Assembly (NCBI GenBank): GCA_030649305.1 | Contig: JAUSFV010000006.1 | Location: 32-64,031 of the forward strand | Length of the DNA: 64,000 nucleotides | From: a bacterium | GTDB lineage: Bacteria > Patescibacteriota > Minisyncoccia > Sungbacterales > GWA2-42-14 | Direction of reading: 5' to 3' | In this document: positions 2,623-56,326 of the stretch, piece by piece | Numbering within the stretch: position 1 is the first letter of the stretch | How the letters are laid out: each line of letters begins with the position of its first letter | The notes under the pieces: generated by a model | What the model was told of the DNA's origin: nothing | Seen by the model: the letters and a program-made list of their open reading frames with translations, nothing else | Databases searched by the model: none | Translations under genes and position numbers: made by a program

Positions 2623-3099
2623 TTACTTTTCGAAGCGAGGCACACGCGGCTGTTTCCATTGCTCGTATGCTGATTCGGAAAATAATTCGGGATTCGTATC
2701 CTCCTCCAAAAGATCTTTCCATAATGTCCTTACGGCAAAAGCCCTAAGTCGCGACAACTCCTCCGGATCCTTGCCCTGTATCCACGAATTACGAGCATCT
2801 TCGAGATCTGTTAAAAACGTTGCTTCGCGTTTTTTGATTGAGCTTGAGCCGACACCCGCGCGTATCATTTCATGAATAGAAGAAAGCCAATCTAAGACAT
2901 TGTTATACTCATTTTCATCGCGACCAAATCGAGCCGCCAGTTGTTCCTTGCTCCAAAATCCCTCCACCGCTTCTTCGCCAAGCTCCTCCGCTTTTTTTAT
3001 CAAATCGGGATTTGTACGCTCAAGCGACTGCAAATATTCCTGCGCCTTTGGGTCGCGCAGGGTCGGATCGTCTGATTCTAAACGCTCTGGTTTCTCCAT
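2623..3099 (-). CDS. Hypothetical acidic protein, 158 aa; paralog of ORF 1990..2592
   Basis: Track ORF with a shared C-terminal motif with the neighbour and an acidic N-terminus. Confidence 0.5.
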   Translation of the reverse strand: MEKPERLESDDPTLRDPKAQEYLQSLERTNPDLIKKAEELGEEAVEGFWSKEQLAARFGRDENEYNNVLDWLSSIHEMIRAGVGSSSIKKREATFLTDLEDARNSWIQGKDPEELSRLRAFAVRTLWKDLLEEDTNPELFSESAYEQWKQPRVPRFEK

Positions 3100-3249: not shown

Positions 3250-3717
3250 CTACCACGCAAAATGCGCGAACGCCTTATTTGCCTCCGCCATCCTATGCGT
3301 ATCCATTTTTTTCTTCACGGCATTCCCCTCGTTTTTGGATGCTGCCAAAAGTTCTTCAGCCAAGCGATGATGCATAGCTTTTCCTTTTTTCGCGCGGGCC
3401 GCTAACAAAATCCAGCGAAACGCAAGCGACATTTTCCGGGGTCCCCGCACTTCACGCGGCACCTGATAGTTAGCGCCACCCACGCGGCGCGCCTTGATTT
3501 CTAACAACGGCGAGGCATTGCGAATCGCCAAATCAAACACCGCAAGCGGGTCCTGCTTGTATTCTTTTTCAATCACGTCAAAGGTTTTATACACCACCCT
3601 CTGCGCAACGCTTTTTTTGCCGTCCTTCATGACGTAATTGATAAATTTCCCAACGGTTTCGTTAGAATACTTTACATCCGGAATTATGGGTCGTGTGATG
3701 TTTCGTTTTCTTCTCAT
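3250..3717 (-). CDS. rpsG: 30S ribosomal protein S7
   Basis: 155 aa with typical S7 sequence (…KFINYVMKDGKKSVAQ…, …VPREVRGPRK…), in the str operon position. Confidence 0.9.
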   Translation of the reverse strand: MRRKRNITRPIIPDVKYSNETVGKFINYVMKDGKKSVAQRVVYKTFDVIEKEYKQDPLAVFDLAIRNASPLLEIKARRVGGANYQVPREVRGPRKMSLAFRWILLAARAKKGKAMHHRLAEELLAASKNEGNAVKKKMDTHRMAEANKAFAHFAW

Positions 3718-3734
3718 AAATATACCCTAATAAC

Positions 3735-3800
3735 TATGCGAATGTATGCTAATGATATGCCAATATTCGCATACTATTTGCATATATTAGCATAAAAATT
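3735..3800. promoter_or_regulatory. Cluster of ATGC(G/T)AAT / ATT(C/A/T)GCAT octamers in the rpsL-rpsG intergenic region
   Basis: ATGCGAATG, ATGCTAATG, ATATTCGCATACTATTTGCAT and ATTAGCAT within 65 bp; the same motif family recurs at 52535-52640. Confidence 0.5.
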
Positions 3801-3808
3801 AGCGTGTT

Positions 3809-4219
3809 TTATTTCGGACGCTTTGCCCCGTATTTAGACCGCTGCTGTTTTCTTCCCTCAACTCCCGTCGTATCCAAAATCCCGCGCACAATGTGATAGC
3901 GCACTCCCGGCAAATCTTTTACCCTGCCCCCGCGAATAATAACCACCGAATGTTCTTGCAGTTTGTGCCCCTCGCCCGGAATATAGGCCGTTACTTCCAT
4001 GCCATTGGTCAGACGAACGCGCGCAACTTTACGAAGTGCTGAGTTTGGTTTCTTCGGCGTCATGGTTTTTACCAAAATACACACTCCCCGCTTGAATGAA
4101 GAGGGATACAATTTCGGGCGGTTTTTGAGTACGTTAAATCCGCGCGCGAGTGCGGGCGCTTTTGTCTTTTTTCGCTTTAATTTTCTGTTTCGCTTCAGAA
4201 GCTGATGAATGGTTGGCAT
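3809..4219 (-). CDS. rpsL: 30S ribosomal protein S12
   Basis: [12 protein letters not shown]… …[19 protein letters not shown]…: canonical S12. Start taken at MPTIHQ rather than the longer track ORF. Confidence 0.9.
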
Positions 4220-5767: not shown

Positions 5768-5803
5768 CCTTATCGGCTAATTCGTGCGAATTAGCCGATA
5801 AGG
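5768..5803. repeat. 36-bp perfect palindrome CCTTATCGGCTAATTCG-TG-CGAATTAGCCGATAAGG (copy 1 of 3)
   Basis: Arms are exact reverse complements; lies 4 nt downstream of the M50 protease stop. Identical copies sit near 13564 and 23688. Confidence 0.8.
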
Positions 5804-8888: not shown

Positions 8889-8923
8889 TTATAATAATGA
8901 ATGAGAAGGTTCTATATTTTGGT

Positions 8924-8960
8924 CGGGGTGTAGTATATCGGCAGTACGCATGCATGGGGG
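8924..8960 (+). pseudogene. Orphan 5' half of a tRNA-Pro-like gene (acceptor CGGGGTG, D-arm, anticodon stem 5' strand, loop AUGGGGG)
   Basis: Identical to the 5' half of tRNA-Pro at 9049, including ~12 nt of 5' flank, except acceptor position 5 (G vs C). It is followed by a 12-bp hairpin instead of the 3' anticodon stem. Confidence 0.55.
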
Positions 8961-9048: not shown

Positions 9049-9122
9049 CGGGCTGTAGTATATCGGCAGTACACATGCATGGGGTGCATGTAGGTCGGGT
9101 TCGATTCCCGACAGCCCGACCA
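9049..9122 (+). tRNA. tRNA-Pro (anticodon GGG), CCA encoded
   Basis: Hand-folded cloverleaf: acceptor CGGGCUG/CAGCCCG, D-stem GUAU/GUAC, anticodon stem CAUGC/GCAUG with loop AUGGGGU, T-arm UCGGG-UUCGAUU-CCCGA, discriminator A. Confidence 0.8.
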
Positions 9123-9138
9123 AAATACAGAACAAAGA

Positions 9139-9174
9139 GATGTAGGCCGGGTTCGATTCCCGGCACCCCGACCA
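9139..9174 (+). pseudogene. Orphan 3' fragment of a tRNA-Pro paralog (variable loop, T-arm CCGGG/CCCGG, acceptor 3' strand CACCCCG, A, CCA)
   Basis: Its acceptor 3' strand complements the orphan 5' half at 8924, not the intact tRNA at 9049; compensatory differences appear in both the acceptor and T stems. Confidence 0.5.
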
Positions 9175-9342
9175 AAAAATTGAAGAAAAAGATGCGGGCC
9201 GGGCCTGCCCCATTAGATGCGAAGCTATCTAATGGGGTGAAATTCCCGGCAACCCCAAAATCAAACCGGACAAAAACGAACTCAAAATACGAAGAAAATC
9301 GATTTAACAAAAAACCGGTAACTAACAAAGTTTTAAATAATT

Positions 9343-13563: not shown

Positions 13564-13597
13564 CTTATCGGCTAATTCGTGCGAATTAGCCGATAAG
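13564..13597. repeat. 34-bp perfect palindrome CTTATCGGCTAATTCGTGCGAATTAGCCGATAAG (copy 2)
   Basis: Identical to the copy at 5768; located just after the mtlD terminator. Confidence 0.8.
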
Positions 13598-13651
13598 GAA
13601 AAAATAAAAATGGAACTGGTTTAAAAAAATTTTCTATGGTATCCCCAAACC

Positions 13652-23687: not shown

Positions 23688-23722
23688 CCTTATCGGCTAA
23701 TTCGTGCGAATTAGCCGATAAG
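23688..23722. repeat. Perfect palindrome CCTTATCGGCTAATTCGTGCGAATTAGCCGATAAG (copy 3)
   Basis: Identical to the copies at 5768 and 13564; again just 3' of a terminator. Confidence 0.8.
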
Positions 23723-24067
23723 AAAATATGCCCACACTAATTTAATTTTATATAAAACCCCCAGCGAGACAAAATAAAAACGCTGCGGGATTCCGCGGCA
23801 TTTTTATCCGCCCCGCGATTGGACAGGTTCAAAAGTTTTAGCATGAAATCACGTGGGTTGCCGCAATTTCAGCCCAAGGGCCGAAACAATGTAGGCATCC
23901 CGAAAAAGTGAGATTGTCCTAAAACCTTGACCCGCAATCAACGGAGCTTATCTTCATTATACACGAAACACAAACCATAAAACAAGACCGCTTCTGAAAA
24001 TGTTGATTATATTTTACAAATATGGTATTCTAAAATCAGAGCACTTTGTCAAAAAATGAGCAAAAAT

Positions 24068-25561: not shown

Positions 25562-25593
25562 CTATTTTCTTATTCGCGCGAATTAGAAATAAG
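25562..25593. promoter_or_regulatory. Near-palindromic site CTATTTTCTTATTCGCGCGAATTAGAAATAAG overlapping the 3' end of the arsR-like gene
   Basis: Core ATTCGCGCGAAT; direct and inverted repeat of the site at 25900-25931. Confidence 0.6.
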
Positions 25594-25899: not shown

Positions 25900-25931
25900 C
25901 TATTTTCTAATTCGCGCGAATAAGAAAATAG
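25900..25931. promoter_or_regulatory. 32-bp near-perfect palindrome CTATTTTCTAATTCGCGCGAATAAGAAAATAG upstream of the arsR-like gene
   Basis: Arms are reverse complements with one mismatch. Preceded by a CT-rich tract; putative operator. Confidence 0.6.
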
Positions 25932-35497: not shown

Positions 35498-35526
35498 TTG
35501 ACAAAAATTAACAAAAATGCTATATT
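35498..35526 (+). promoter_or_regulatory. Sigma70-like promoter TTGACA-N17-TATATT for the small secreted-protein gene
   Basis: Consensus -35 with 17-nt spacer; a 12-bp GC hairpin (35575-35603) sits between the promoter and the RBS. Confidence 0.5.
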
Positions 35527-35612
35527 AAAATCCATCAAAGTTCGTTGAGAGGGCTAAACGCCTATTGGCGTCGCCCGAACACGCCCGAGGGCGTGTTCGG
35601 GGGAGAATAAAA

Positions 35613-36252: not shown

Positions 36253-37359
36253 CTATTTCTTCCGACGGAGAAACGCCGGCACCGAATCCCACTCTGACTC
36301 TTCCTCCTGTGCGGGTTTCACCGCTCCATTCATGGGCTTCACCGGAGACGCTATGCCGTTCGTCGCGGGCTTGCGCAATTCGGGTGCCACCGCGCGCGCG
36401 CCATTCCCGTTAAATCCTGTTGCAATAACCGTAATTTTAATTTCGCCTTTTTTCAGGCGCTCATCATGCACCGCGCCGAAAATCAACTTCGCGTTCGTAT
36501 CAACAGATTCAGTAATAATTTTCGCGGCTTCATTAATCTCCCACATGGTCAAATCCGGACCGCCTGATACGTTAAAAAGCACTCCGCGGGCGCCGTTGAT
36601 GGAAATATCAAGCAGGGGCGAGCTGATTGCAGCCTGTGCCGCCTGCATATGCCGGTTCTCGCCCGACGCAATGCCAACCCCCATCAAAGCGCTTCCCGTA
36701 TCCTCCATCACCGCGCGCACATCCGCAAAATCAACATTCACCAACCCCGGCATCGTAATCAAATCTGAAATTCCGCGAACGGCATGTTGTAACACCTCAT
36801 CGCAAATTCTGAACGCAGCAAGAAGCGGCGTATTCCGCTCAATCATATTTAAAATCCGATCATTCGGAATCGTAATTAAAGCGTCCACCTTGTCTTTTAA
36901 TCTCGCCCAACCCTCCTCGGCAATTTTTCCTCTTTGATTTCCTTCAAAGGCAAAGGGCTTTGTCACAACCGCAACCGTTAAAGCACCCGATTCTTTCGCG
37001 GCCTCCGCGACAATGGGTGCCGCACCCGACCCTGTTCCTCCTCCAAGTCCGCATGTAATAAAAACCATGTCAGAGCCCTTCAGCGCCTCGTGAATTTCGT
37101 CGCGGTTTTCTTCCGCCGCCTGCCGCCCGATTTCGGCATTCATCCCCGCCCCCAACCCTTTCGTCAGATTTTTTCCAATGTGGATTTTGCTGGTCGCTTT
37201 ATTGTGATGCAATGCCTGCGCATCCGTATTAATCGCAATAAAATTCACGCCGTGAATTTTGGCGTCCATCATACGGGTGATGGCAGACCCACCGGATCCG
37301 CCCACGCCCACAACTTTTATTTTCGCGTAGGTTTCTATGTCGGGTTTTACTTGTGGCAT
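36253..37359 (-). CDS. ftsZ: Cell division GTPase FtsZ
   Basis: GGGTGSGAAPIVAEAA tubulin signature; NTDAQAL; start taken at MPQVKPD…. Confidence 0.9.
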   Translation of the reverse strand: MPQVKPDIETYAKIKVVGVGGSGGSAITRMMDAKIHGVNFIAINTDAQALHHNKATSKIHIGKNLTKGLGAGMNAEIGRQAAEENRDEIHEALKGSDMVFITCGLGGGTGSGAAPIVAEAAKESGALTVAVVTKPFAFEGNQRGKIAEEGWARLKDKVDALITIPNDRILNMIERNTPLLAAFRICDEVLQHAVRGISDLITMPGLVNVDFADVRAVMEDTGSALMGVGIASGENRHMQAAQAAISSPLLDISINGARGVLFNVSGGPDLTMWEINEAAKIITESVDTNAKLIFGAVHDERLKKGEIKITVIATGFNGNGARAVAPELRKPATNGIASPVKPMNGAVKPAQEEESEWDSVPAFLRRKK

Positions 37360-37373
37360 TTCCTTAAGCTCAT

Positions 37374-37404
37374 TAAGTAAATTAAGCACGTTAAGTAAAT
37401 TAAG
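37374..37404. repeat. Tandem direct repeats TTAAGTAAATTAAG (x2) with flanking inverted TTAAGCA/TGCTTAA motifs upstream of ftsZ
   Basis: Two 14-mers 17 nt apart, then GCTTAACTTGCTTAA…CTAACTTGCTTAACTCGCTTA. Confidence 0.5.
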
Positions 37405-37488
37405 TCCCGCATGCTTAACTTGCTTAATACGCCTAACTTGCTTAACTCGCTTATTTTAATGTATTCTTTCCCGAAATCCGAGGCAATA

Positions 37489-37517
37489 TTGACAAAAAAA
37501 ACGCCATATGCTACACT
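37489..37517 (+). promoter_or_regulatory. Sigma70-like promoter TTGACA-N17-TACACT upstream of prcB
   Basis: AATATTGACAAAAAAA… with 17-nt spacing, ~60 nt before ATG 37575. Confidence 0.45.
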
Positions 37518-37574
37518 ACCCGTAACATACGGCTCTTCGAAAACCGAATAAAAACCCAACACCAGGAGGCAAAA

Positions 37575-52086: not shown

Positions 52087-52476
52087 TTAGGATATACCAA
52101 GCAATTTTTTTATCTCTGTCACAATCTCGCCCGGCAACGTATTTGCCTTGATGAAATACCGCGCGACTTTAAGGCGCTCGGCATCCTCGGTGTGGTGGGG
52201 ATCGGAAAGATTGGAAAGAATAATTACAATGGTATCCTTTCCCTCGGGAAGCGCCCGGACATCCCCGACGAACTCAATCCCGTTTTTCACAGGCATCAAA
52301 ATATCCACGAGAAGCAGGGCGGGGTGTTCTTTCTTGAATACCGCAAGCGCCTCCTCTCCGTTTTTTGCAACAAAAAGTTCCGCAAATCCCTCTTTTATGA
52401 TTGCGTCAGACAGGAGCTGAATCATAAAATCATCATCTTCGGCAAGGAGTATTTTGTATTTTGTTGATTCTGCCAT
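52087..52476 (-). CDS. Single-domain response regulator (CheY-like receiver)
   Basis: KILLAEDDDFMIQLL…LLLVDILMP…: receiver-domain Asp pocket. Confidence 0.75.
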   Translation of the reverse strand: MAESTKYKILLAEDDDFMIQLLSDAIIKEGFAELFVAKNGEEALAVFKKEHPALLLVDILMPVKNGIEFVGDVRALPEGKDTIVIILSNLSDPHHTEDAERLKVARYFIKANTLPGEIVTEIKKLLGIS

Positions 52477-52534
52477 GGTTGTAGTATATCACATAGTATT
52501 ATTTAAAAAAGCAGGGTGTGTATAAAACAGATGA

Positions 52535-52640
52535 TGCCAATTTACAAATCTCATGCCAATAATGCGAATTGCAAATCGTAACCGGTATTCGCAATTTGTA
52601 GATTTGCATACTATTCGCATCACATTGGCATCATACTTGG
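52535..52640. promoter_or_regulatory. Cluster of ATGC(C/G/A)AAT / ATT(G/C/T)GCAT octamer motifs between ftsA and the response-regulator gene
   Basis: ATGCCAAT x2, ATGCGAAT, TTGCAAAT, ATTCGCAAT, ATTTGCAT, ATTCGCAT, ATTGGCAT and TTGGCGAAT within ~100 bp. Confidence 0.5.
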
Positions 52641-52652
52641 CGAATTACTTTC

Positions 52653-53888
52653 TCACGGCAAAAAATACGACAACCAATTCTTCACCCCTGATACCACCCT
52701 CCCGAGCGATGTCGTATAAAAATACGGGTCTTTGCCGGAGGAACGATTCAGGTGCCATGCAACAAGACCAAGTGCCACCGGAATCTCCGACAAAAAATCA
52801 TGCGCCTCACCCGCTCCCTCAAGAAAATCGGATTGCGAACCAATTTCAACCGGAAGCCGGAGTTCGCGCTTTGCCAACTCCACAATCCCCGGAATCCGTG
52901 ATGCCCCGCCGATCAGCACCACCCCCGCGGGAAGCAACCCCATACGATCCACGCGCTTCAGCTCCTTCATGCCGAGTTCAAAAATATCCCGAAAGCGCGC
53001 TTCAATAATTTCAGCCAAATTCCGCTGGGGGAAAAGTGCCGGGTCATCAGGAATAAATTCGGCAAGTTTGATAACTTCGCGCTTGGAAAATACCTCGGGC
53101 AGAGAGTGGCCGAAACGAAGCTTAATGGCTTCTGCCGTGCTCACAGCCGTTTTTAAACCAATCGCGATATCGTTCGTAATGTGATTTCCCCCGACAGGAA
53201 ATACTCCGGCACTCAAAAGGCGCCCCTCTTCATACACGGCAAAATCCGACGTACCCGCGCCGATATCAAGCAACATCACCCCGAGTTCTTTCTGCCGTTT
53301 TGAAAGCGCTGCCTCTGATGCGGCAAGCGGAGAAAATACCACGTCCTCAACGGTAACACCTGAGGACTCAATACATTTAAGCAAACTTGCAACGGCAGAA
53401 CGCAGGCCGTCAATAATGAGCGCGTCCGCCTCAAGACGAATACCCACCATCCCGACGGGATCCTTAATGCCGCCCTCGTTATCAATCCGAAATTCTTTCG
53501 GAATAATGTGAACGATGTCGCGATTCGGATTTTTCGGAGCCAAATTTTCTGCGGCAGTAAGAACGCGCTTCACGTCATCGTCAGAAATTTCGCCGTCAGC
53601 CCTTCCCACCGCGACAACTCCGCGCGACGTAAAAGAACCCATATGCGTCCCGCCGATACTCGCGATACACGAACGAATCTTCACGTTTGAGGAGCGCTCC
53701 GCCTCTTTCAAGGATTTTTTTACAGCGGAGGAAACCTCGTCAATGTCAGCCACCGCACCCCTTCGCATGCCAAAAGCAGGTACACGGCCGAGCCCGAGTA
53801 CCCTGATTTTTTCTTTCCCCGTCCGCTCGCATACCAACGTCGTGACACTATTCGTTCCGATATCAATTGCGGTTATTATGCTTCGCAT
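52653..53888 (-). CDS. ftsA: Cell division protein FtsA
   Basis: ITAIDIGTNSVTTLV… actin-fold N-terminus with FtsA architecture; start at ATG 53888. Confidence 0.8.
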   Translation of the reverse strand: MRSIITAIDIGTNSVTTLVCERTGKEKIRVLGLGRVPAFGMRRGAVADIDEVSSAVKKSLKEAERSSNVKIRSCIASIGGTHMGSFTSRGVVAVGRADGEISDDDVKRVLTAAENLAPKNPNRDIVHIIPKEFRIDNEGGIKDPVGMVGIRLEADALIIDGLRSAVASLLKCIESSGVTVEDVVFSPLAASEAALSKRQKELGVMLLDIGAGTSDFAVYEEGRLLSAGVFPVGGNHITNDIAIGLKTAVSTAEAIKLRFGHSLPEVFSKREVIKLAEFIPDDPALFPQRNLAEIIEARFRDIFELGMKELKRVDRMGLLPAGVVLIGGASRIPGIVELAKRELRLPVEIGSQSDFLEGAGEAHDFLSEIPVALGLVAWHLNRSSGKDPYFYTTSLGRVVSGVKNWLSYFLP

Positions 53889-53982
53889 AATACTCGACAC
53901 CAATACACAAATCGCTCACGAATGTCACGAATACGATTTTTCATTAGTGTCATTCGTGCCCATTCGTGTGTTTGTGTCGGGC
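53886..53982. repeat. ~95-bp element R1 (CAUACUCGACACCAAUACACAAA…CACGAAUGUCACGAAUA…GUCAUUCGUGCCCAUUCGUG…), between ybeY and ftsA
   Basis: ~90% identical to R2 at 55332-55425; begins at the ftsA start codon and contains a bipartite hairpin of CACGAAU/AUUCGUG repeats. Confidence 0.7.
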
Positions 53983-54845: not shown

Positions 54846-55334
54846 CTATCCTAGCACTTTCTTCACTACTCTACTCACCCGATCCCCCGACGCCTGCCCC
54901 TTCGCGCGTTTCATAATTTCTCCCATAACACGGCCAAAATCTTTTTGCGTGACCTCACCAAGCCCGCCCACAACCTCGCCAACAATTTTTTCAAGCTCCT
55001 CGTCCGACATCTCCTCGGGCAAGTACGATTGTAGCATTACAAGTTCGCGTTTTTCACGCTCCGCCGCCTCCTGCCTTCCGCCTTTTTCATACCCCTCAAT
55101 CGCATCTTTTCGTTTTTTTGCCTCCGTGCGAATTGTCTCAACCATTTCCTCATCCGTCAATTGCGATTCTTTTTCCAGATTCTCCGTACCCCCCCTTTTG
55201 CTTAATTTGGTTCGTTTCTCAATCTCCCGGTTCCGAACCGCGGCAAGCAACATCCGAAGCGTTGAAAGCAAATCGCCCTCGTGTTCCCTAAGGGCTTTTT
55301 TCGCATCATCTTCTATTTTTTGTTTTAGCGTCAT
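54846..55334 (-). CDS. yqeY: GatB/YqeY-domain protein
   Basis: …DLLSTLRMLLAAVRNREIEK… YqeY pattern; sits in the conserved rpsU-yqeY neighbourhood. Confidence 0.65.
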   Translation of the reverse strand: MTLKQKIEDDAKKALREHEGDLLSTLRMLLAAVRNREIEKRTKLSKRGGTENLEKESQLTDEEMVETIRTEAKKRKDAIEGYEKGGRQEAAEREKRELVMLQSYLPEEMSDEELEKIVGEVVGGLGEVTQKDFGRVMGEIMKRAKGQASGDRVSRVVKKVLG

Positions 55335-55425
55335 ACTCGACACCAATACACAAAATTTTCACGAATGTCACGAATAACGATTTCCCGTTAGTGTCATTCG
55401 TGCCCATTCGTGTATTTGTGGCGGG
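55332..55425. repeat. ~95-bp element R2 (paralog of R1) between rpsU and yqeY
   Basis: Begins at the yqeY start codon; same CACGAAUGUCACGAAUA…GUCAUUCGUGCCCAUUCGUG core. Confidence 0.7.
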
Positions 55426-55657: not shown

Positions 55658-55667
55658 AACAATAAAA

Positions 55668-55773
55668 TTTCTAATTATTAATTTCTAATTAACCTAATCA
55701 AATCCCAACAAAATTAGACATTCAGGGGTTAGGCATTTATTAGAAATTAGGTCAATTAGGAATTAGACATTTG
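55668..55773. repeat. ~106-bp element RA with ~30-bp terminal inverted repeats (TTTCTAATTATTAATTTCTAATTAACCTAAT … ATTAGAAATTAGGTCAATTAGGAATTAGA)
   Basis: ~85% identical to RB at 56171-56277; MITE/REP-like. Confidence 0.65.
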
Positions 55774-55816
55774 AAGACATGCGATAATTCTCCAAACTCC
55801 AAATCCTTCAAGCGAT

Positions 55817-56170
55817 TCATACGCGATACTCGTCTGGATTATCCTCCCTCCCCCATCCTCCGAGCAAATGCAGATGCAAATGATCAATCACCTGCCCCCC
55901 CTCTCTGCCTACATTAAATACTAATTTATATCCTTTCAAGCCCTTCTCTGCGGCAATCTGTTTTGCGCGATAGATTAATTTTGCAATCATGTCGCTATGA
56001 TTTTCCTGCAAATACGCGATGGACTCAACATGTTCTTTTGGAATCACAAGAATATGTACGGGGGCAGATGGCCGAATGTCTTTGAAGGCCTTAATTTCGC
56101 CGTCCTCATACTCAATCTCGGACGAAACCTCGCCCTGCGCAATTTTACAAAAAATACAATCTGAATACAA
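55817..56170 (-). CDS. HIT-family (histidine triad, Hint-like) protein
   Basis: …CIFCKIAQGE… and …IDHLHLHLLGG… histidine triad; apparent TTG start. Confidence 0.75.
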   Translation of the reverse strand: MYSDCIFCKIAQGEVSSEIEYEDGEIKAFKDIRPSAPVHILVIPKEHVESIAYLQENHSDMIAKLIYRAKQIAAEKGLKGYKLVFNVGREGGQVIDHLHLHLLGGWGREDNPDEYRV

Positions 56171-56277
56171 TTTCTAATTACTAATTTCTAATTGACCTAA
56201 ACAAATCACAAACCCCAATTCACAAAATTAGTCATCGGGCATTGATTAGAAATTAGATCAATTAGGAATTAGACATT
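56171..56277. repeat. ~107-bp element RB (paralog of RA) between hisS and the HIT gene
   Basis: The same TIR-bearing element; the two copies flank the HIT gene as direct repeats. Confidence 0.65.
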
Positions 56278-56326
56278 TGCAAACACCGATAAACGAATAT
56301 GCCTCTCTGCAAACATCCTACACCCC

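Follow-up and report, generated by a model that had tools for sequence, protein, structure and literature searches.

A dispersed, mirror-symmetric family of intergenic elements in Patescibacteria built from oriented copies of an 8-bp word

Introduction

Several described systems resemble the intergenic element that is the subject of this report, a mirror-symmetric array of the unit ATGCNAAT which occurs in a 64 000 nt stretch of a Sungbacterales genome (positions 32-64 031 of contig JAUSFV010000006.1, assembly GCA_030649305.1; hereafter the window). The repetitive extragenic palindromic (REP) sequences and bacterial interspersed mosaic elements (BIMEs) of enterobacteria and pseudomonads, which are served by REP-associated tyrosine transposases (RAYTs), are likewise short, imperfect and extragenic palindromes with many dispersed copies per genome, often situated in operons right after stop codons, and they too are patchily distributed between related species and marked by GTAG/CTAC tetranucleotides. 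REPs, however, are single stem-loops of 20-40 nt with covarying stems, whereas the arms of the present elements are tandem 8-bp words whose non-word positions do not covary; REP sequences vary between genera, whereas the unit described here is kept across Patescibacteria classes, and no RAYT-type gene was seen among the proteins flanking the copies. Correia elements (CREE/NEMIS) and other miniature inverted-repeat transposable elements (MITEs) are similar in being about 100-150 bp long and intergenic, with terminal inverted repeats, co-transcribed hairpins, promoter-like hexamers at their ends and presence/absence polymorphism. The present element differs from these in that no TA or other target-site duplication was seen by eye, in the identity of only 64-82 % among copies within a genome, in its multi-unit interior and in its spread over phyla rather than one genus.

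A different kind of likeness is to the arrays read by ribbon-helix-helix proteins, such as the omega-protein heptads of pSM19035 and the MetJ metbox, where contiguous units of 7-8 bp in direct and inverted orientation vary in number between sites, only the unit positions are conserved, and one small protein polymerizes along the DNA; a reader of the present arrays is only predicted. Those arrays are confined to a few promoters within one regulon, whereas the elements described here occupy about one-eighth of the spacers of array-selected loci, with the adjoining genes in any orientation. The S7 operator of the Escherichia coli str operon shares with one of our clusters its gene junction, and the rpsL-rpsG spacer of E. 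coli is similar in length; the present element, however, is not specific to that junction, is missing there in some relatives and shows no structural covariation. DNA uptake sequences (Neisseria DUS, Pasteurellaceae USS) are also short over-used words, often in intergenic inverted pairs, in organisms that rely on uptake, but they are spread singly throughout the genome, including coding regions, whereas ATGCNAAT outside the arrays occurs only 8 times in 63.7 kb, with about 17 expected for the whole window of 64 kb.

Two octamer clusters in the window

Counted over the whole window, the unit ATGCNAAT shows no enrichment (20 copies, versus 17.3 +/- 4.1 in shuffles), but 12 of the 20 lie inside two spacers, the remaining 63.7 kb holding the other eight, and each of the two spacers contains three forward units followed by three inverted ones. 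The largest number of copies per 100 bp is six, reached at two places, and it is at most three in all 300 dinucleotide shuffles, which rules out chance or low complexity as the origin of the clusters. A first-pass annotation of the window had described octamer clusters in both orientations in these two spacers, and exact matching and the shuffle test bear this out; it is the clustering that is extreme, the total being ordinary. The clusters, their neighbours and two further family members are as follows.

3250-3717, - strand: rpsG, ribosomal protein S7 (Pfam Ribosomal_S7, E-value 2.5e-58)
3733-3796, no strand assigned: cluster 1, short family member (exact matches; family profile E-value 1.4e-6)
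3809-4219, - strand: rpsL, ribosomal protein S12 (Pfam Ribosom_S12_S23, E-value 1.4e-37; start codon read from the sequence)
52087-52476, - strand: single-domain CheY-type response-regulator receiver gene (Pfam Response_reg, E-value 1e-15)
52483-52491, - strand: TGaTATACT, extended -10-like, 6 nt before the receiver ATG, no Shine-Dalgarno sequence (read from the sequence)
52529-52636, no strand assigned: cluster 2, canonical family member (exact matches; family profile E-value 3.6e-22)
52531-52559, - strand: sigma-70-like geometry in the downstream-facing arm of cluster 2 (TTGGCA, 17 nt, CATCAT, TG; consensus scan; function putative)
52653-53888, - strand: ftsA (Pfam FtsA and SHS2_FTSA; homologues 88-93 % identical in close relatives)
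53896-53974, no strand assigned: R1, diverged family member with CACGAAT / ATTCGTG units (profile match 53896-53967, E-value 1.6e-3)
55339-55418, no strand assigned: R2, paralogous copy of R1 (family profile E-value 1.4e-3; 87-90 % identical to R1)

Cluster 1 fills the rpsL-rpsG spacer (91 bp, 3718-3808), lying 15 nt from the rpsL stop codon and 18 nt from the rpsG start codon. Its six exact copies fall within 58 bp, with ATGCNAAT on the + strand at 3736, 3746 and 3757 and, directly after this forward set, the inverted ATTNGCAT at 3765, 3776 and 3786, so that the start-to-start distances are 10, 11, 8, 11 and 10. Cluster 2 lies in the ftsA-receiver spacer (176 bp, 52477-52652), 21 nt from the ftsA stop codon and 57 nt from the start of the receiver gene; the TGaTATACT sequence, outside the element, is probably that gene's own leaderless promoter. 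The exact copies of cluster 2 are at 52534, 52553 and 52562 (forward) and at 52602, 52613 and 52624 (inverted), and there are degenerate units with one or two mismatches, namely TTACAAAT at 52542, TGCAAAT at 52570, ATTCGCAA at 52587 and ATTTGTAG at 52593. Read on the + strand, the first arm thus consists of U1 ATGCCAAT, U2 TTACAAAT, 3 nt, U3 ATGCCAAT, U4 ATGCGAAT and U5 TGCAAAT, and after a 10-nt loop the mirror units follow, ending in ATTGGCAT-CAT. The fragment CATACTATT(T/C)GCAT is common to both clusters (3770-3783 and 52607-52620), as had been noticed at the outset. A profile of the family, built from 48 copies among which is cluster 2 itself, finds four matches in the window (cluster 2, cluster 1, R1 and R2), or about one copy per 16 kb. 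R1 lies upstream of ftsA, its end 7 nt from the start codon, and R2 adjoins, also upstream, a - strand gene whose start is near 55334; the earlier suggestion that R1 and R2 are tied to the octamers through a CGAAT half-site is upheld by these profile matches.

A family of elements across the Patescibacteria

Both clusters are copies of a dispersed, mirror-symmetric family of intergenic elements of the Patescibacteria, or candidate phyla radiation (CPR). When one genome per species was scanned with a pattern of three direct ATGCNAAT units, more than 118 loci matched. Roughly one match in five is from the CPR; of the others, most are trivial microsatellites of the (ATGCCA)n sort. The CPR carriers are Saccharibacteria, Paceibacterota, Liptonbacteria, Giovannonibacteria, Sungiibacteriota, Moraniibacteriota and Doudnabacteria; Uhrbacteria are also counted as a carrier lineage, and the match in Roizmanbacteria has units in one orientation only (forward or inverted). 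Another 120 loci came from a scan of metagenomes, the majority of them from groundwater and sediment, and the alignable copies from all scans number more than 130, with 88 in the alignment that fixed the layout. The CPR matches nearly replicate cluster 2, including features that the pattern did not request (degenerate units CTACAAAT and TGCGAAT, and the end ATTGGCAT-CAT), and cluster 2 aligns unit-for-unit with copies from other phyla. When the arrangement of units was left free in the scan, forward-then-inverted order was found in 22 of the 24 arrays with both orientations, and the reverse order never.

The element is 60-110 bp long and contains 6-10 copies of the 8-bp unit A-T-(G/A)-C-N-A-A-T, all pointing inward. 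In the canonical form, represented by the 48 copies of the profile (consensus TAAATATGATGCCAATATGCGAATTTTATGCGAATGATGCGAATTGCGAATATTATATTCGCAATTCGTAGATTCGCATAAAATTCGTAGATTTGCATCATATTTT), the first arm is U1 ATGCCAAT, U2 ATGCGAAT or CTACRAAT, 3 nt, U3 ATGCCAAT, U4 CTACAAAT and U5 TGCGAAT, and a loop of 0-25 nt leads to a second arm that is its mirror image and terminates in ...ATTGGCAT-CAT. The logo of the unit reads A (.71), T (.86), G/A (.72/.26), C, N, A, A, T, and core-to-core spacing between units peaks at 8-9 and at 11 bp. The word columns of the outer units are 98-100 % conserved, though usually not demanded by the search pattern (the scans did demand intact units), and the most frequent base in the N columns reaches only 0.33-0.61. 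Copies within one genome are 64-82 % identical (0.745, versus 0.658 between genomes). Several copies are situated at contig ends, for example at the start of loci L063 and L181 and the end of L092, with no comparison to chance. The proposal of a genome-specific repeat seed fails, the same unit and unit order being found across many Patescibacteria classes.

Searches for other origins were negative. In viral contigs there were 30 matches, mostly inside open reading frames (ORFs), chance-like and unlike the element, and a phage origin was rejected on this ground. With Rfam 15 only tRNAs of the window reach threshold, with no ribosomal-protein leader among the matches, and a permissive search of the spacers gave generic hairpin matches of at most 22 bits, with cut-offs of 36-120 bits; membership of a known RNA family was therefore rejected at both gathering and permissive thresholds. 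Full-text literature searches for the motif and for CPR intergenic repeats returned nothing relevant, though an earlier description of the element may still exist. One of the collected loci (L029, CAZSQN010000003.1) is titled 'uncultured Gammaproteobacteria bacterium', and its 673-aa DUF2723 protein is 100 % identical to an NCBI entry for Candidatus Uhrbacteria; the record is probably mislabelled.

Close relatives of the window

Relatives were reached through homologues of S7 and FtsA; the window's genome is close to Candidatus Sungbacteria, with 78 % identity to the best named S7 homologue. In contigs with an S7 that is 89-92 % identical, the rpsL-rpsG spacers are 89-96 bp long and contain forward tandem and then inverted tandem units, in variants such as ATACGAAT/ATTCGTAT (L003) and the ATCCAAAT type (L001). 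In relatives with a 78-79 % identical S7 the spacers are only 11 and 29 bp and the element is absent; the junctions of L005, L006/L007 and L169 have no element. The ftsA-receiver spacer of four relatives (FtsA 88-93 % identical) keeps ATGCGAAT, TGCAAAT and ATACGAAT units, while their number and order vary. The family profile matches the rpsL-rpsG spacer of L003 and the ftsA-receiver spacers of L011 and L010, the last of which has an extra canonical copy. The surroundings of the rpsL-rpsG junction also differ. In the window rpsG is followed, instead of by fusA, by a pair of ORFs (2623-3099 and 1990-2592) that match no Pfam family; relatives have at this position an uncharacterized gene of 207-303 aa, which in two of them (L002 and L006/L007) is followed by fusA.

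Oriented words rather than base pairs

The first-pass annotation had emphasized the many alternative inverted-repeat pairings and had suggested predicting the structure of the rpsL-rpsG intercistronic RNA. The pairings are real, both spacers folding into long imperfect hairpins, and the rpsL-rpsG RNA has a stable predicted fold; what does not stand is a conserved RNA structure. The folding z-scores are as follows.

Cluster 1: -5.1 (sense, -28.3 kcal/mol) and -6.4 (antisense)
Cluster 2: -2.1, marginally better than shuffles
R1: -5.0

At opposed variable positions (the N positions and the 3-nt spacers) of the 48 profile-aligned copies there are 355 Watson-Crick or G-U pairs versus 366.7 expected when the partner column is shuffled among sequences (z = -1.3), so that the compensatory change that is typical of a REP stem is not found here. 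The outermost N/N pair is Watson-Crick in 15 copies, G-U in 2 and mismatched in 29, 60-77 % of copies have mismatches in the 3-nt spacers, and several positions pair below chance; a smaller count of pairs based on minimum-free-energy structures agrees. Invariant words without covariation indicate that what is symmetric is the orientation of the words and not the base pairing. As in operator arrays, recognition positions are kept, intervening and degenerate positions are free, and the two half-sites vary independently. Conservation restricted to words is the signature of protein recognition sites and speaks against selection for a stem in RNA or DNA, the hairpin pairing being, to judge from the alignment, a by-product of the inverted words.

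A preference for structure on the sense strand was seen in one of two tests. With 17 copies the test was negative (p = 0.33), whereas in 58 co-directional cases the sense RNA was the more stable 38 times versus 19 (p = 0.019), and the G-U-capable, GTAG-type unit ATTNGTA was on the sense strand 24 times versus 7. In the window the GC skew of the + strand is negative in 30 of 32 2-kb bins (cumulative -3.4), with AT skew mostly positive, so that the - strand, which encodes most long ORFs, is G+T-rich; if this holds generally for carriers, the sense-strand G-U bias is confounded. Strand-specific RNA structure was thus set aside, the larger test being weakly positive and perhaps confounded by composition, and covariation giving it no backing.

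Genomic placement and neighbouring genes

The collected carrier loci contain 135 elements in 731 kb, in spacers (1.85 per 10 kb), so that dispersed extragenic copies, a hallmark of REPs and BIMEs, are evident here as in the window, with its four in 64 kb. The elements occupy short spacers nearly completely, with median gaps of 8 nt from the upstream stop codon to the element and 10 nt from the element to the downstream start codon. When the profile is used to define the elements and loci of the Bacteroidota type are excluded, the occupancy of the three types of spacer does not differ significantly (chi-square p = 0.10).

Co-directional spacers: 67/490 occupied (13.7 %)
Divergent spacers: 7/71 occupied (9.9 %)
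Convergent spacers: 4/74 occupied (5.4 %)

The flanking proteins are very diverse (133 proteins in 106 clusters). Recurrent neighbours with roles in translation are S8, S6, S2, EF-Ts, EF-G, L20, L2, L5, L11/L1, S11/S4 and class I aminoacyl-tRNA synthetases, and others are SSB, NusG, GAPDH, YidC, FtsA/FtsZ, MreC and pilins. The rpsF-ssb junction is occupied three times, in genomes whose S6 proteins are only 40-54 % identical, and further recurrent junctions are rpsB-tsf, rpsL-rpsG, rpsG-fusA, rplK-rplA, rpsK-rpsD, ftsA-ftsZ and that of an aminoacyl-tRNA synthetase gene with yidC. These recurring junctions span lineages in which the proteins are only 40-67 % identical, and in one Moranbacterium both rpsL-rpsG and rpsG-fusA are occupied. 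The top 25 Pfam families among the 106 flanking proteins include no transposase, integrase or recurrent DNA-binding protein. A search for arms 0.3-5 kb apart found only separate neighbouring elements with no cargo enclosed, and an autonomous form of the element was rejected accordingly.

What the elements may be

We favour, with a probability of roughly 0.45, the interpretation that the elements are dyad-symmetric, multi-site docking platforms for one sequence-specific double-stranded-DNA-binding protein, itself a prediction. This view is drawn from the extreme clustering, the forward-then-inverted order, the more than 130 copies, conservation of the motif alone without covariation, the same junctions in deep lineages, the retention of units in the ftsA-receiver spacer of relatives, the absence of transposases from the most frequent families of flanking proteins, and the failure to find arms split by cargo. 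Of the two proposals made by the first-pass annotation, the one favoured is thus that of many sites for one DNA- or RNA-binding factor, since the motif is near-invariant in more than 130 copies and the N positions and spacers drift, with the factor still a predicted one. An oligomer of such a protein would bind the units, either nucleating centrally or pairing both arms, and would cover almost the whole spacer within highly expressed operons; the occupied spacer could then modulate transcription across the junction as a roadblock, as an insulator or through an effect on internal initiation. When transcribed, the imperfect hairpin would bring the upstream stop and the downstream start within about 20 nt of each other, and this would account for the tolerance of the element in operons with tight coupling, rpsL-rpsG among them.

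Several points weigh against a docking platform of this kind. No binding protein was identified in this analysis, and binding is inferred from the sequences. The unit spacing of 8-9 and 11 bp means that successive sites are not all on one face of the helix, and arrays of other units are present in the same genomes (TTAAG and TCTAATT in the window, CGAAAT in L190), so that one protein cannot read all arrays. Because all spacer types are occupied, position implies no single transcriptional role. The requirement for intact units under-samples decayed copies, so that conservation is somewhat overstated. A profile search of the 15-20 kb loci L005-L007 (three loci, with S7 78-79 % identical) found no copy, and such patchiness among close relatives is more like that of an accessory or mobile system than of a core regulator.

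Patchiness of this sort is what would be expected if the elements were instead selfish DNA of the REP/BIME or MITE kind, with units that are the sites of a transposase or RAYT-like enzyme at the ends of a cargo-less element without host function, a reading that we think somewhat unlikely. They are dispersed, extragenic and palindromic, at the copy densities given above for the window and for the collected loci (about 1 per 16 kb and 1.85 per 10 kb); they have terminal inverted ends, (A)TGATGCCAAT...ATTGGCATCA(T), as MITEs do, of which the flanking columns 7/100 and 8/99 covary; the rpsL-rpsG site is filled in some relatives and empty in others; spacer types are filled almost evenly; similarity between copies is somewhat higher within genomes (0.745) than between them (0.658); GTAG/CTAC tetranucleotides recur, as in REPs; and several copies are at contig ends, as assembly-breaking repeats would be, though with no chance comparison. 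Against this, no target-site duplication was seen by eye in the inspected copies, which were not scanned systematically (cluster 2 is preceded by ...AGTA and followed by TCTG...), and an identity within genomes of just 64-82 % speaks against a recent burst. The near-identical copies and autonomous relative of a MITE family are likewise not found (identities of 0.64-0.82 and no arms split by cargo), no transposase was seen beside the copies, the words are intact beside randomized neighbours, unlike the neutral decay of dead copies, and the same junctions are filled where ribosomal proteins are 40-60 % identical. Several of these observations would fit together under a REP/RAYT-like arrangement, in which a domesticated enzyme is kept along with the sites it acts on. 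Action at the level of RNA seems to us improbable: a 30-45 bp imperfect hairpin could serve as an RNase III or other processing site, a stabilizer of the upstream cistron or a device for translational coupling, and the strong folds of cluster 1 (-28.3 kcal/mol, z = -5.1) and R1 (z = -5.0), the position inside operons between a stop 8 nt and a start 10 nt away (medians), the high expression of the neighbouring genes and the sense-strand bias (38 vs 19, p = 0.019; ATTNGTA 24 vs 7) all fit this. However, no opposed variable position shows compensatory change and some pair below chance, the 3-nt spacers fail to pair in 60-77 % of copies, cluster 2 has a z-score of only -2.1, a G+T-rich transcribed strand, if shared by other genomes, would alone favour sense G-U pairs, divergent and convergent spacers also have copies, and there is no Rfam match.

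Two proposals concern particular signals. An outward-facing promoter cassette, with a -35-like TTNGCA (in unit U3'), 17 nt and a -10-like CATNAT at the element end (with TG when N = G), giving short-leader or leaderless transcripts, is in our judgement highly improbable, and the promoter-like geometry follows from the 8+3+8 spacing of the units. The consensus scan flagged cluster 2 once (TTGGCA-17-CATCAT with TG), the stretch from element end to start codon has a modal length of 5-10 nt and is often T-rich and devoid of a Shine-Dalgarno sequence, and convergent spacers are mildly depleted (5.4 % vs 13.7 %), but start-facing arms score 8.06 vs 7.79 for stop-facing ones (p = 0.27; composition-matched shuffles 7.26), the NAT extension is equally present on stop-facing sides, cluster 1 has no promoter-like match and four elements lie between convergent genes. 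An S7 translational operator of the str operon, in which the rpsL-rpsG RNA would mimic the S7 site on 16S rRNA as in E. coli, would suit the position and stable fold of cluster 1; it is effectively refuted by the distribution of the element, which occurs in at least three other spacers of the window and beside more than 100 unrelated genes elsewhere, and is lacking from the 11-bp and 29-bp rpsL-rpsG spacers of relatives, close relatives using different units at this junction and Rfam showing no ribosomal-protein leader. An intrinsic terminator (a G+C-rich stem with a T run) was sought and found in neither spacer. A sigma-54 promoter was also set aside, as the TGGCAT-N5-TTGCAT spacing fits but the order of units is usually wrong and the -12 is often TTGT.

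Other arrays and repeats

Directly upstream of ftsZ (36253-37348, - strand) the window contains, at 37355-37460, five TTAAGNA units with a 10-bp period followed by five inverted ones, an architecture like that of the octamer arrays with a different word; the first unit overlaps the ftsZ ribosome-binding region, and the folding z-scores are -4.1 and -4.7. Two modules of about 90 % identity, with TCTAATT and inverted AATTAGA units, flank a 117-aa ORF (55661-55779 and 56164-56285). Mirror arrays of CGAAAT/TCAAAT and CCAAATT are found in L190 (2724-2889, the S12-S7 spacer) and L001 (1433-1521), whose genomes have canonical ATGCNAAT elements in neighbouring spacers. It may be that palindromes of tandem words form a general class of feature in the spacers of CPR genomes. 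Bacteroidota and human-gut contigs (L042, L154, L163, L168, L208, L229 and L232) have a distinct family, also recovered by the metagenome scan, whose hairpin arrays are made of contiguous GTGCCAAT/ATGCCAAT/GTGCTAAT octamers and sit between convergent genes; the word is similar, and the phylum and context are different.

The window also has three copies (5769-5802, 13564-13598 and 23688-23722) of a perfect 34-nt palindrome, CTTATCGGCTAATTCGTGCGAATTAGCCGATAAG, which includes GCTAAT and CGAAT half-words and is followed by an A-rich tail, and a perfect 28-nt inverted pair, CTATTTTCTTATTCGCGCGAATTAGAAA, at 25562-25589 and 25904-25931, 314 nt apart with a small ORF region between. The tRNA-Pro gene (9049-9122) is flanked, at 8909-8959 and 9140-9191, by partial duplicates of its own 5' half (94 % identical) and 3' half (85 % identical), perhaps a scar left by integration at this tRNA. 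Clear sigma-70-type promoters of the form TTGACA-N17-TGnTAnAnT are present at 35498-35527, 37489-37518 and 24003-24032, so that ordinary promoters coexist with the arrays in this genome.

Implications

The CPR represents a large share of bacterial diversity, with genomes of about 1 Mb and almost no characterized gene regulation, and Patescibacteria have, to our knowledge, very few recognizable transcription factors. An element of 100 bp whose words are all retained between Saccharibacteria and Parcubacteria would rank among the few conserved non-coding features known for the group. The family profile is a practical marker for CPR contigs, as illustrated by the mis-titled Gammaproteobacteria contig with its Uhrbacteria protein, and the family is a likely cause of assembly breaks. 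Should the elements prove to be selfish DNA instead, they would be an unusual repeat family with a recognition word that is stable across phyla. We entertain, more tentatively than the docking platform itself and with some doubt, the wider possibility that the ATGCNAAT array is a lineage-wide cis-element, read by one predicted DNA-binding protein, that punctuates ribosomal-protein, elongation-factor, cell-division and pilus operons. If so, it would constitute a global control layer, possibly linked to growth or host contact, unlike any described bacterial regulon. In the Saccharibacteria, which can be cultivated and manipulated genetically, the element offers a direct handle for fishing out its predicted binding protein.

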